Source: a virus (lineage: Duplodnaviria > Heunggongvirae > Uroviricota > Caudoviricetes). From it: DNA of 64,000 nucleotides. The DNA lies in the IMG/VR virus record IMGVR_UViG_2721755711_000002. One strand, 5' to 3'. Each line of letters begins with the position of its first letter. The stretch's first letter is position 1. The position numbers and the translations under genes are program-made. Positions 55,454 to 59,845 of the stretch are shown here, in pieces. The notes beneath the pieces are model-generated. The model ran no database searches and was not told the DNA's origin. It was given only the letters and a program-made list of their open reading frames with translations.

Positions 55454-55879
55454 TCAATGCGCGACCACGGCATTTCCCGCCGGGCCGCCACGATTCATCT
55501 GATTGAAACCAGCAATCGCCACTGCGACAAAATCATCAGCGTCTCTCACCAGTCGTTCCCGCGTCTCCACCAGTTCCCGAAACCAGGCTGAACTGTGGCT
55601 GCGCATTCGGGCCACCAGCAGAGGTGGCATTGCTTTTTCGATCGCTGGTAACAACGCCTGAATTTTTTTAACCGCATCAGGAGTGTCTTTCTCCACCCAG
55701 CGGAAAATTTTCTGGGTGTTACGGCCCAGGGCTTCCGGATGGCTGTCGTCGTACAATTCCGGGAACGTCATACCGAGTTCGAAATACGCTTTGGTAATTT
55801 TCGCAGCCGGTACTTTCTCGCCGTCTGGATGCGCCCAGGCATTCATCGCCATGCGGATGTGTTCATGCTTGATTTTCAT
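55454..55879 (-). CDS. Putative CII-like regulatory protein
   Basis: Position between cro-like gene and O-like gene. Confidence 0.35.
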   Translation of the reverse strand: MKIKHEHIRMAMNAWAHPDGEKVPAAKITKAYFELGMTFPELYDDSHPEALGRNTQKIFRWVEKDTPDAVKKIQALLPAIEKAMPPLLVARMRSHSSAWFRELVETRERLVRDADDFVAVAIAGFNQMNRGGPAGNAVVAH

Positions 55880-56135
55880 GAATCAACTCCGGCGCATTTG
55901 ATGTGTTAACCTTACATCCAACAGGTAAACCGTCGGTTGGGTTAGGGTATTTATCAGGGCGCAATTCATGCGGAGTCACTCCCCAGCCAAGCGCCTCACA
56001 TGCTGGAATGACCTCCTCCGCAGGAACTCGTTTTTTAAACCACCCACTTATAGTTTGTGGAGTTTTACCAAGACGACGCCCTAACTCTGATTGGCTCATT
56101 ATCGACAGGATTTTCACTTGAGTACTTTTTTGCAT
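55863..56135 (-). CDS. Cro-like HTH regulator
   Basis: HTH SQSELGRRLGKTPQTISGW; divergent from repressor; RBS ggaggg. Confidence 0.55.
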   Translation of the reverse strand: MQKSTQVKILSIMSQSELGRRLGKTPQTISGWFKKRVPAEEVIPACEALGWGVTPHELRPDKYPNPTDGLPVGCKVNTSNAPELIHENQA

Positions 56136-56147
56136 GTTTCCCTCCAA

Positions 56148-56255
56148 ACTTTACGATGGCACCGATAATTACAAATTTAATTTTAATTTTCAACTTCTAT
56201 TTGTAATGCCACTTATCAATTTTTTCTGTAGGATTGCAGGATTAGTTTTCGAGGG
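56148..56255. promoter_or_regulatory. Divergent promoter/operator region (OR-like)
   Basis: Perfect 9-bp inverted repeat attacaaat (56168-56176) / atttgtaat (56200-56208); same acaaatttaat core as OL-like site. Confidence 0.5.
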
Positions 56256-56261
56256 GTGGTG

Positions 56262-56654
56262 ATGATCTTTGTAAAACGCCTTCAGCAGGTGTTGCAGGAA
56301 TTGAATATAAACCAGTCAGAGCTGGGAAGACGTCTTGGTGTAAAACCCCAATCCGTGCAAGGTTGGTTGAAAGGCGTGATGCCAAGAATGGATAAATTGG
56401 AAAAATTAGCAGAGCTCTCACAACATCCCGTCCATTGGTTCTTTATGGAAGAAGAAACTCTCGGCGATAAGATGGCTGTATCCAGTAATGACAACCAACC
56501 GCAACTTACAGAACAACAACGAAAAATCATATCGCTTTTAGATGAGTTACCTCAAAGCGACGCAGAGCAGATCATTCGGGATATGGAGCAAAAACGCGAT
56601 TTCTATAAACGCAAACTTGAAGAGTTACTGCGGCAGAAAAACAAAACTGCCTGA
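56262..56654 (+). CDS. Prophage repressor (CI-like, HTH; no peptidase domain)
   Basis: HTH NQSELGRRLGVKPQSVQGW; divergent from cro-like gene. Confidence 0.6.
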   Translation: MIFVKRLQQVLQELNINQSELGRRLGVKPQSVQGWLKGVMPRMDKLEKLAELSQHPVHWFFMEEETLGDKMAVSSNDNQPQLTEQQRKIISLLDELPQSDAEQIIRDMEQKRDFYKRKLEELLRQKNKTA

Positions 56655-56700
56655 TGCGTTCCTTTTCTGGAACGAGCATCAGGCAAATGACTAACAGATT

Positions 56701-57060
56701 TTATAATCCCACCAGGCTTTCCAAGGGGATACCAAATTGATTATGAAGACGGCGAATCATTGGTAACGTAAGGCTTCTGGTGCCATTCAACACCTCGTAA
56801 ACCCGATTTTTTTTTCCAATTGCGGGTTCCAAATCTTTCACGGTCAGCCCCTGCTGTTCCATGCGAAATCTTATAGCTTCAATTGGGGATGGTGGCTCAA
56901 TGGGATAATGTTTTTTTTCATATTCCGCTATTAGCAAACACATCACCTCAAAGAAATCCCCCTCAGGCGTGTTAATTTCCGGCTCATTGTCGAACATGGG
57001 CTCAACAGCACGCAACGCGGCTTCATAATCTTGCTCTGTACGAATAGGTTTGATGTTCAT
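56701..57060 (-). CDS. higA: Antitoxin HigA (HTH)
   Basis: 119 aa, C-terminal HTH; directly downstream of HigB-like toxin. Confidence 0.7.
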   Translation of the reverse strand: MNIKPIRTEQDYEAALRAVEPMFDNEPEINTPEGDFFEVMCLLIAEYEKKHYPIEPPSPIEAIRFRMEQQGLTVKDLEPAIGKKNRVYEVLNGTRSLTLPMIRRLHNQFGIPLESLVGL

Positions 57061-57062
57061 GC

Positions 57063-57365
57063 TTACTCCAGTTCAATGGTATCAGCATCAATGGCATCGT
57101 ATTCCTTGTGGTTTCCGATGAATTTAACAAATACCCATCCTCGCTGATACGCAATTGCAACAATTAAACGGTAATGATTACCTTTTATGTTGAATACCAC
57201 GCGCCGGTTTTTCAATATACTGGCCGTTCGGTATTGTGCCTTAATGTCTGCCGGGCTTTTCCAGTCAGCCTTTGCTGCCTCATCCACCCATGCCCTTAGC
57301 GGTTGTTCTGCATCGGGATTCTCCGCCCAAAAATCCCTAAGCGTTTTAACTGAGATGATCTTCAT
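57063..57365 (-). CDS. higB: Toxin HigB (RelE/ParE superfamily)
   Basis: 100 aa; ...NIKGNHYRLIVAIAYQRGWVFVKFIGNHKEYD resembles HigB C-terminus; toxin-first order. Confidence 0.7.
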   Translation of the reverse strand: MKIISVKTLRDFWAENPDAEQPLRAWVDEAAKADWKSPADIKAQYRTASILKNRRVVFNIKGNHYRLIVAIAYQRGWVFVKFIGNHKEYDAIDADTIELE

Positions 57366-57399
57366 AACTGTATGGTAGTCCCATTTCGGGACTAATGCA

Positions 57400-57470
57400 A
57401 TCGGCCTCAGCTACAAATTTAATGATAAATATATTGACCAATTAAATTTTAATTTGTAGATTATACTCAC
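57400..57470. promoter_or_regulatory. OL/pL-like operator-promoter for rightward early operon (and/or higBA control region)
   Basis: Inverted repeat ctacaaatt (57411-57419) / aatttgtag (57451-57459) flanking TTGACC (57434-57439), TAGATT 17 bp downstream. Confidence 0.45.
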
Positions 57471-57640
57471 CAACCAACTCCCCGCCCCACAGAACGCAGG
57501 GCAATACTTCGAGTTACCAGGCAGTGGTCAGGGGTTAAGTAGCCAGCCCGAGGCGTAAGAACATGACGGCAGGGTTCAACTTTAACTATGCAGCAGGTTT
57601 TTGTTCCGCCACCCCGGCGTTAAAGGGAAATGAGGTCAGC

Positions 57641-57793
57641 ATGGATACTATCGATCTTGGCAACAACAAATCTCTGGTATACGGCGTGTTTCCAAACCAG
57701 GACGGTACGTTCACCGCGATGACGTATACCAAAAGCAAAACGTTTAAAACCGAAGCTGGCGCGCGTCGCTGGTTAGCCAGAAATACTGACTGA
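57641..57793 (+). CDS. Small early protein
   Basis: 50 aa from M27 of ORF 57563..57793; first gene after pL-like promoter. Confidence 0.3.
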   Translation: MDTIDLGNNKSLVYGVFPNQDGTFTAMTYTKSKTFKTEAGARRWLARNTD

Positions 57794-59121: not shown

Positions 59122-59656
59122 TCTTAACTCTCTTTGTTGTTGGGGTATCCGGATTATACAAATTTCTTGTCGTTGGGGAATGACGGAAACCACCTCGCCT
59201 GACGTGGTTAAAAGCAGGCACACAACGCGAAAGCGCACGGCGAAGGTTTCTTTTCCTTAGAAGGCTTGTCGTTAGATTTCTTCGACCGTGCACTTCCGGT
59301 TGTGGCAATCCGCGAAATGGCGCGGCGGTAAGTATGGCGGGTTATCCTTACCCCCATTGTGGCACCGGGTTGGCAGGTTGACCATACGCTTAAGTGACAA
59401 CCCCGCTACAACACTCCATGTTGATTTGTACCTTTGGCGGCATCAGTTTCATTGCTGGCTGATGTCCGCCCTTTTTAAAGTGAATTTTGTGATGCGGTGA
59501 ATGCGGCTCAGCGCACGCGGAACAGTTAAAAAGCGATTAGTTCCCCCGTATCGGGTGTTTATGGGTTCCCTGTATCCGGCGTTAATTGTTAACTGGTTAA
59601 CGTCACCTGGAGGCACCAGGCACCGCATCACAAAATTCATTGTTGAGGACGCGATA

Positions 59657-59845
59657 ATGGAAACGTTATTACTCAATTCCACTACGCCTGAAACTCGTTT
59701 TGAAATTGGCGTTATCACTGGCGATAAAACTTTTATTGAGGATGCCATTAACCAGATAAAGCATGAGCCGGATTCATTAAATAAGGTTTGCATTGTTTCA
59801 ATGATGGCCCGTTCACGCCTGATGCAAAAAGGATACTGGCAATGA
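59657..59845 (+). CDS. Small hypothetical protein
   Basis: 62 aa; RBS gagga. Confidence 0.3.
   Translation: METLLLNSTTPETRFEIGVITGDKTFIEDAINQIKHEPDSLNKVCIVSMMARSRLMQKGYWQ

Follow-up and report, generated by a model that had tools for sequence, protein, structure and literature searches.

A higBA toxin-antitoxin cassette, probably autonomous cargo, in the interval from repressor gene to PL of a lambdoid immunity region

Positions 56,148 to 57,470 of a 64,000-nucleotide stretch of Caudoviricetes DNA (IMG/VR virus record IMGVR_UViG_2721755711_000002; the whole stretch is called here the window) hold the toxin-antitoxin (TA) genes higB and higA next to a CI-like repressor gene. Two described prophages resemble this locus in organization. 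CP-933P (Sp12) of Escherichia coli O157:H7 encodes YdaS (Cro-like), YdaT (CII-like), and PaaR2, a short repressor devoid of the S24 domain. In the order paaR2-paaA2-parE2, a type II TA pair lies between the repressor gene and the left promoter (PL), and is co-transcribed with the repressor from the promoter of the latter (PRM) (Jurenas et al. 2021, PMC8630535). PaaR2 has been footprinted on the right operator (OR) region and represses PL in a reporter assay, and the repeats at PL match those at OR (PMC8630535). In Qin, a prophage of E. coli K-12, the repressor gene is followed by a PL-like promoter, ydfA and the small RNA DicF. The dicA-dicC and dicA-dicBp intergenic regions feature operators like those found at the lambda right promoter (PR) and at lambda PL, DicA represses dicBp, and in Qin short repressors of the DicA kind are relieved by antirepressors (PMC10448788). 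The interval between cI and PL (the cI-N slot) is a known hotspot for exclusion and abortive-infection genes expressed in lysogens, such as rexAB of lambda and bstA of BTP1 (PMC8585504).

The locus in the window is probably the immunity region of a lambdoid prophage of the Qin/CP-933P type, in which higBA are autonomous cargo inserted between the repressor gene and the left operator (OL) and PL. From left to right the gene order is ydaT-like, cro-like, a 126-bp gap, repressor, higA, higB, a 197-bp gap, and an operon on the + strand. Conservation was judged in 17 distinct variants of the locus. PR and PL were found by a promoter scan; the repressor gene signals and the higB promoter were read from the sequence. 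Features bearing on this reading are the following (HTH, helix-turn-helix).

56165-56193, - strand: candidate PR, TTGAAA-17-AATTAT with TG, reading into the cro-like gene; the spacer corresponds to O1
56170-56205, no strand: predicted pair of OR operators, O1 (56170-56187) and O2 (56188-56205), whose half-sites TACAAAT / ATTTGTA face outward
56229-56234, + strand: tentative candidate for the PRM -10 (TGTAGGAT); the candidate -35 is weak and adjoins O2
56251-56256, + strand: candidate Shine-Dalgarno sequence of the repressor gene, GAGGGG
56262-56654, + strand: gene of a short DicA-like prophage repressor of 130 aa (Pfam HTH_3; S24 peptidase domain not detected)
56648-56685, - strand: hairpin over the repressor stop codon, likely the intrinsic terminator of higBA (folding -26 kcal/mol, z -3.9 to -4.8)
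56701-57060, - strand: higA, antitoxin gene, 119 aa, C-terminal HTH (HTH_3)
57063-57365, - strand: higB, toxin gene, 100 aa (PF09907, E 4.8e-33; 113.7 bits, cutoff 27)
57372-57401, - strand: predicted higB promoter, -35 TTGCAT (57401-57396), 18-bp spacer, -10 TACCAT (57377-57372)
57376-57394, no strand: perfect palindrome TAGTCCC-ATTTC-GGGACTA, overlapping the spacer and -10 of the higB promoter, presumed HigA operator
57402-57411, no strand: hypervariable linker from the higB promoter to OL, with 9 of 10 positions variable among the 17 variants
57412-57458, no strand: predicted OL operator pair, O3 (57412-57429) and O4 (57441-57458), with repeats shared with OR
57434-57462, + strand: PL, TTGACC (57434)-17-TAGATT (57462), reading into the early-left operon with ydfA and a DicF-like match; the spacer corresponds to O4

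A sequence-only reading of the window had recognized a CI-like repressor, a cro-like gene and a HigB-HigA pair, and had placed the latter in the position of lambda rexAB. Pfam and matches to K-12 HigBA bear out the gene identities, and the position, between the repressor gene and OL/PL, is indeed that of rexAB and of BTP1 bstA (PMC8585504). In contrast to rexAB and bstA, which are co-oriented with the repressor gene and presumed to be expressed from its promoter, higBA are convergent and apparently self-promoted. Models of Rex or BstA were not found among the Pfam and PADLOC matches of HigB and HigA.

The window shares with CP-933P the YdaS and YdaT families, the short repressor without S24 domain, a type II TA pair in the same slot, and repeats common to OR and PL (PMC8630535). 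The two loci differ in the TA genes (HigB/HigA here, ParE2/PaaA2 in CP-933P), in the operator motifs and in wiring, as higBA are on the strand opposite to the repressor gene, convergent to it, and feature a predicted promoter of their own. The published N-terminus of PaaR2 (MQKKE) is unlike that of the window repressor, the comparison being at the N-terminus only. Qin has the same backbone, and DicA, for which operators are reported at the dicC and dicB promoters (PMC10448788), has the same length and architecture as the window repressor. The two proteins are only 22% identical over a full-length alignment (E 2e-7), DicC is unrelated to the cro-like gene product, and in Qin, unlike in the window, the interval from dicA to the dicB promoter is free of cargo. 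The window repressor matches the NCBIfam DicA subfamily over its full length with 50 bits, under the cutoff. The start codon is the one used by RefSeq in homologous loci. With 130 aa and HTH_3 alone, the protein lacks the RecA-stimulated S24 autocleavage domain of repressors of the lambda/P22 type. Among solved structures only generic HTH matches were found (434 repressor and a nuclear magnetic resonance entry annotated as LexA), and no PaaR2 entry at E <= 1. Upstream of the gene, block 56199-56235 is nearly invariant, with two differences, each in a single variant.

HigA is similar to E. coli K-12 HigA (PDB 5ycl/5ifg; E 1e-9), and HigB aligns to K-12 HigB from residue 1. The H-x-EYD motif of HigB is invariant in an alignment of 8 sequences. 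The toxin-first order, the 2 nt which separate the higB stop from the higA start, and the HTH of HigA are features of type II TA systems; HigB is assumed to be the toxin by analogy with the K-12 HigBA family. K-12 HigB-HigA (ygjN/ygjM; PDB 5ifg, 5ycl) likewise consist of a PF09907 toxin, encoded first, and an antitoxin with a C-terminal HTH, and are preceded by a palindrome located beside the -10. K-12 HigB is ~28% identical to window HigB, and K-12 HigA is longer (138 aa versus 119 aa). The K-12 palindrome, GTTGCCA-N5-TGGCAAC, differs from that of the window, and the K-12 locus is chromosomal, not prophage-borne.

The predicted higB promoter falls below the threshold of the promoter scan. Its -10 conforms to TAnnAT in all variants, third and fourth positions being variable, and since it is followed after 6 nt by the higB ATG, a leaderless or near-leaderless transcript is implied. 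The arms of the overlapping palindrome are largely conserved, the loop is variable. A second copy of the palindrome, sought as a hint of HigA control of phage promoters, was not found anywhere in the window. At the opposite end, higA and the repressor gene converge, with 46 bp between their stop codons, and the hairpin found there has largely conserved arms. Read on the - strand it is followed by GCAGUUUUGUUUUU, read on the + strand by AAAUGAC. The U-tract occurs on the - strand only; the hairpin therefore resembles a terminator of higBA, and one that would stop repressor transcripts poorly. A consensus terminator scan returned no site at 56648-56685, as the internal bulge of the hairpin escapes the rules of the scan. 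The - strand U-tract is encoded by the last codons of the repressor gene.

A second copy of higBA, 80% identical, lies directly downstream of the gene for the Q antiterminator in another lambdoid prophage (E. coli JNEC-KY176, locus L002, 3988-4700). The slot downstream of Q is where stx genes sit in Stx phages. Homology extends from a few bases past the higA stop to the palindrome upstream of higB, which this copy retains along with the promoter, and the flanks are unrelated. The borders of the alignment thus delimit a mobile unit of ~700 bp (~56695-57395), which includes its own control region. Relative to this copy, higB has a dN/dS of 0.064 and is under strong purifying selection; HigA is 87% identical at the amino acid level (~80% at the nucleotide level), and no dN/dS value is given for higA because synonymous sites are saturated. 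The copy next to Q has a leader of ~20 nt with a Shine-Dalgarno sequence, unlike the leaderless layout.

The control region is not peculiar to this phage. HigB loci were surveyed in many phyla, one genome per species (80 loci). TCCC-N5-GGGA is present within 60 nt upstream of the HigB gene in 60 of them, and in 33 of these 60 the palindrome is 13-14 nt away from the start codon, as in the window. The common layout consists of TTG, ~5 nt, TCCC-N5-GGGA, CTAnnnT, and then 6-7 nt to the start codon. A large subfamily of HigB(PF09907)/HigA pairs has this one promoter-operator layout in common across many phyla, which would imply leaderless or near-leaderless mRNAs; no paper describing it was found in a limited full-text search. 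The partner of HigB measures ~120-135 aa in ~70 of the 80 loci, and ~400 aa in 5; the two-gene form is therefore the usual one.

The repeats noticed in the sequence-only reading lie outside this unit. The gap between the repressor and the cro-like genes does contain a perfect 9-bp inverted repeat, ATTACAAAT (56168-56176) / ATTTGTAAT (56199-56207), and the acaaatttaat core reported in both regions extends to an exact 12-mer, TACAAATTTAAT, found at 56170 and 57412 and nowhere else in 64 kb. In addition, 56170-56188 and 57440-57458 form an inverted match of 19 nt, identical at 17. Each region can be viewed as two 18-bp units starting with TACAAAT, O1/O2 and O3/O4. O1 and O2 are nearly invariant; O4, which contains the perfect palindrome AATTAAA-T-TTTAATT, is invariant except for one edge position, and the repeats as a whole are conserved in the 17 variants. 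The TTGACC-17-TAGATT promoter, also noticed earlier, was recovered by the scan as PL, and the PR spacer is nearly a copy of the PL spacer. Divergent repressor and cro-like genes, separated by repeats overlapping PR, and the same motif at PL beyond the repressor gene are the marks of a lambdoid immunity region. The shared repeats are most likely paired operators at PR and PL, in the classical PR/OR and PL/OL arrangement. A single regulator very probably binds both regions, as had been suggested; that it is the repressor we infer from the sharing and conservation of the motifs.

Three sister phages, Tritos, vB_EcoS-689R5 and vB_EcoS-813R8, have the ydaT flank and the leader past PL in common with the window, but other cro/cI alleles. 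The interval between cI and PL holds neither cargo nor toxin genes in any of them. Two operator copies matching the OR motif of the same phage are present at PL in both Tritos and 689R5, an overlapping OR-like match in 813R8. PL of the window aligns by position with PL of these phages, and homology of the leader resumes just past the PL -10. It follows that the operators come with the immunity allele; O3 is an element of OL, and not one added for the sake of higBA. As a regulator common to both regions is the defining trait of the lambdoid OL/OR design, no link to the toxin genes is implied. When the repressor/cro gap and a site past the repressor gene have repeats in common, this is what an OL/OR pair leads one to expect, and does not indicate that cargo is regulated.

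Distribution of the module was assessed in 5,426 complete E. coli genomes. The repressor was found at >=95% identity (at least 95%) in 147, and higBA in 148, at 90% identity or more in 147, the additional one being the divergent copy next to Q. Both the higB and the higA open reading frames (ORFs) are intact in the 148 genomes. The whole 2.1-kb module is present in 147, and repressor and higBA are co-located in every locus inspected. In IMG/VR, all 23 contigs bearing the repressor also carry higB. The same repressor allele without higBA was not found at >=89% identity in either the E. coli genomes or the viral contigs. Flanks differ between carriers in a mosaic fashion, at both the replication genes and the PL operon; hence cro-OR-repressor-higBA-OL travels as one block. 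In E. coli VL40 (NZ_CM177011.1) the match to the module is split in two by an IS4-family element, and an IS4 transposase is annotated there.

More distant homologues of the repressor (71-74% identity) have different content in the same slot. In Salmonella Javiana (72% identical repressor) the slot hosts a gene for a PaaA2-family antitoxin (L141, 3454-3645), for which a ParE partner is not evident; in S. diarizonae a 424-aa protein of the PLD family is encoded (L143, 3506-4780), and nothing is evident in Sodalis (L145, 1133-1610). The variety fits the known status of the interval between cI and PL as a hotspot.

The sequence-only reading had gone on to propose that TA expression is coupled to lysogeny control. 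The data do not support this part of the claim, as higBA have a predicted promoter and a presumed palindromic operator of their own, of a kind found family-wide, and the shared repeats are explained as ordinary OL/OR. In the form originally put forward, repressor bound at the shared core beside higB directly controls higBA, and the TA pair tracks the lysogenic state. O3 is located upstream of the higB -35 at a distance of 10 bp, about one helical turn further out than O2 is from the candidate PRM -35, and higBA are strictly linked to the repressor allele. Yet O3/O4 are laid out like OL in phages free of cargo, so that PL suffices to explain them; the promoter and operator of higB form a family-wide autonomous unit; no phage operator overlaps the core promoter of higB; and the linker in between varies more than any other part of the locus, and in one variant has lost 1 bp, which breaks helical phasing. 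Because of the variable linker and of the operator-free core promoter, direct control is quite unlikely, and nothing in the sequence seems to call for a direct influence of the repressor on higB.

A different form of coupling would involve convergent transcription. PRM transcripts which are not terminated would be antisense to higA-higB, and damp or tune the TA pair; alternatively, transcription of higBA could act as a roadblock which keeps read-through out of the genes of the PL operon. The convergent orientation, with stop codons so close to each other, and the lack of a + strand U-tract suit this view, as does the cargo-free phage 689R5, in which a GC-rich hairpin and a T-run follow immediately the repressor gene (read from the alignment). 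The strong hairpin (-26 kcal/mol), however, may still terminate or pause transcription, and the arrangement is possibly a by-product of insertion. Coupling by convergent transcription is improbable to a similar degree.

Some points weigh against higBA as cargo independent of the switch. The distance between O3 and higB is unchanged in 16 of the 17 variants, and an activation or looping effect on higB is thus possible. Read-through past a hairpin with a U-tract on the - strand only would itself be a form of coupling. In the related PD-lambda-2 system the toxic partner is the HTH-peptidase protein and not the HigB-like one, and the role of HigB as toxin is derived from the K-12 family. Taken as one, the possibility that higBA are wired into the switch, by O3-bound repressor or an OL-OR loop modulating the higB promoter, or by antisense PRM RNA, is unlikely. 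If it held, the balance of toxin and antitoxin would report the presence and activity of the immunity allele, and the cassette would guard lysogeny, or this immunity allele.

A third alternative concerns the nature of the genes. HigB matches the PADLOC model PD-Lambda-2_A over its full length (E 1e-40), and HigA matches PD-Lambda-2_B (E 8e-42), but only as residues 1-119 of a 402-position profile, so that higBA might be viewed as the decayed, non-functional remnant of a three-gene PD-lambda-2 system. In PD-lambda-2, the B component (a HigA-like HTH joined to a peptidase) is toxic, A neutralises it, and C, related to a P4 antitoxin, is required for defence (Vassallo et al. 2022, PMC9519451). 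Both the C-terminal peptidase and the third gene are absent at the window locus, where the stop codons of higA and of the repressor gene are 46 bp apart; no peptidase remnant or further ORF was found downstream of higA before the terminator at the repressor gene end. Membership in PD-lambda-2 was ruled out on these grounds. As the peptidase fusion and the third gene are missing, and the toxic partner of that system is B, higBA are a relative, and not a member, of PD-lambda-2. Decay is very unlikely, as the two-gene form is much commoner than that with a ~400-aa partner (~70 versus 5 of the 80 loci), purifying selection is strong (higB dN/dS 0.064, HigA 87% identity), 148 E. coli genomes have the two ORFs intact, and traces of a peptidase are lacking.

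Chance similarity of two intergenic regions, both AT-rich, is extremely unlikely as the source of the shared motif and was ruled out by shuffle statistics and conservation, for although two or more matches to the 12-mer occur in 8 of 100 shuffles when one mismatch is allowed, the exact 12-mer (mean 0.02 copies) never reached two copies in 100 shuffles, the 17/19 inverted match comes in addition, both motifs occupy the spacers of similar promoters and are kept while neighbouring positions vary, and a related OR motif is present in the Salmonella homologues. The window contains TACAAAT-N22-ATTTGTA a single time, a count that one shuffle in 100 attained. The repeats, on these statistics, are real.

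Genes and signals at both sides of the module complete the map of the region.

55454-55879, - strand: ydaT-like gene, CII analogue (Pfam YdaT_toxin, E 2e-9)
55863-56135, - strand: cro-like HTH gene of the YdaS family (Pfam YdaS_toxin/HTH_3)
55869-55886, no strand: perfect YdaT box, TTGATT-N6-AATCAA, where the cro-like and ydaT-like genes meet (PRE-like); the sole exact copy in the window
57638-57793, + strand: ydfA-like DUF1391 gene, first in the PL operon (Pfam DUF1391, E 3e-27)

Homologous loci of E. coli have the ydaT-like gene annotated as 'toxin YdaT family protein'. The cro-like gene product matches PHROG 35 (transcriptional repressor) with E 3e-30. TTGATT-N6-AATCAA has been reported as the site recognized by YdaT of CP-933P, a CII analogue (PMC9986795), and its position at the cro/ydaT junction suggests a promoter similar to PRE, the lambda promoter for repressor establishment. 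The ydfA-like gene is nearly identical to Qin ydfA over the aligned gene, and the PL operon also encodes a RecE-like exonuclease. A match to DicF was found at 59423-59471 (+ strand), which is below cutoff (38.7 bits against an Rfam gathering score of 48, E 5e-6), and a sub-threshold match to STnc100 follows directly, at 59473-59676. The two matches are consistent with an early-left operon of the dicBF type. The GC-rich PL leader (57475-57600) is kept in the three sister phages, which have unrelated immunity alleles. As an RNA element it has no Rfam match, and its fold is not better than that of shuffled sequences (z +1.3).

The working of the locus may be pictured by analogy with DicA, PaaR2 and CI. 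The short repressor would bind the paired 18-bp units, O1/O2 overlapping PR, O3/O4 flanking the -35 of PL and filling its spacer, and would silence both the cro/ydaT operon and the operon with ydfA and the DicF-like match. O2 would abut the weak PRM -35, as lambda OR2 does. The higBA cassette, as comparison of loci shows, is mobile and carries a predicted sigma-70 promoter of its own, in which the spacer and the -10 hold TAGTCCC-N5-GGGACTA. By analogy with the K-12 HigBA family, HigA or the HigBA complex would bind this palindrome and repress transcription of the pair, and HigB would be a ribosome-dependent mRNA endonuclease that HigA keeps inactive. Transcription would end at the 56648-56685 hairpin. 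Since the core promoter of higB is outside the phage operators, expression of higBA in lysogens is expected to be independent of the switch. The cassette could stabilise the immunity allele by addiction, against loss or replacement, and/or cause abortive infection when synthesis of HigA stops; we give the two roles roughly equal odds. Stabilisation of the immunity allele is the role proposed for paaA2-parE2.

After paaA2-parE2 of CP-933P, higBA are a second, differently wired TA module within a lambdoid immunity region. The module is common in pathogenic E. coli lineages, among them O26:H11 str. 11368 and strains of O103, O111 and O121. Its strict linkage to one immunity allele over mosaic backbones makes the published idea of allele stabilisation, or of prophage-borne abortive infection, directly testable. 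The conserved promoter-operator layout of the HigBA subfamily may serve as a guide for annotation and experiments.

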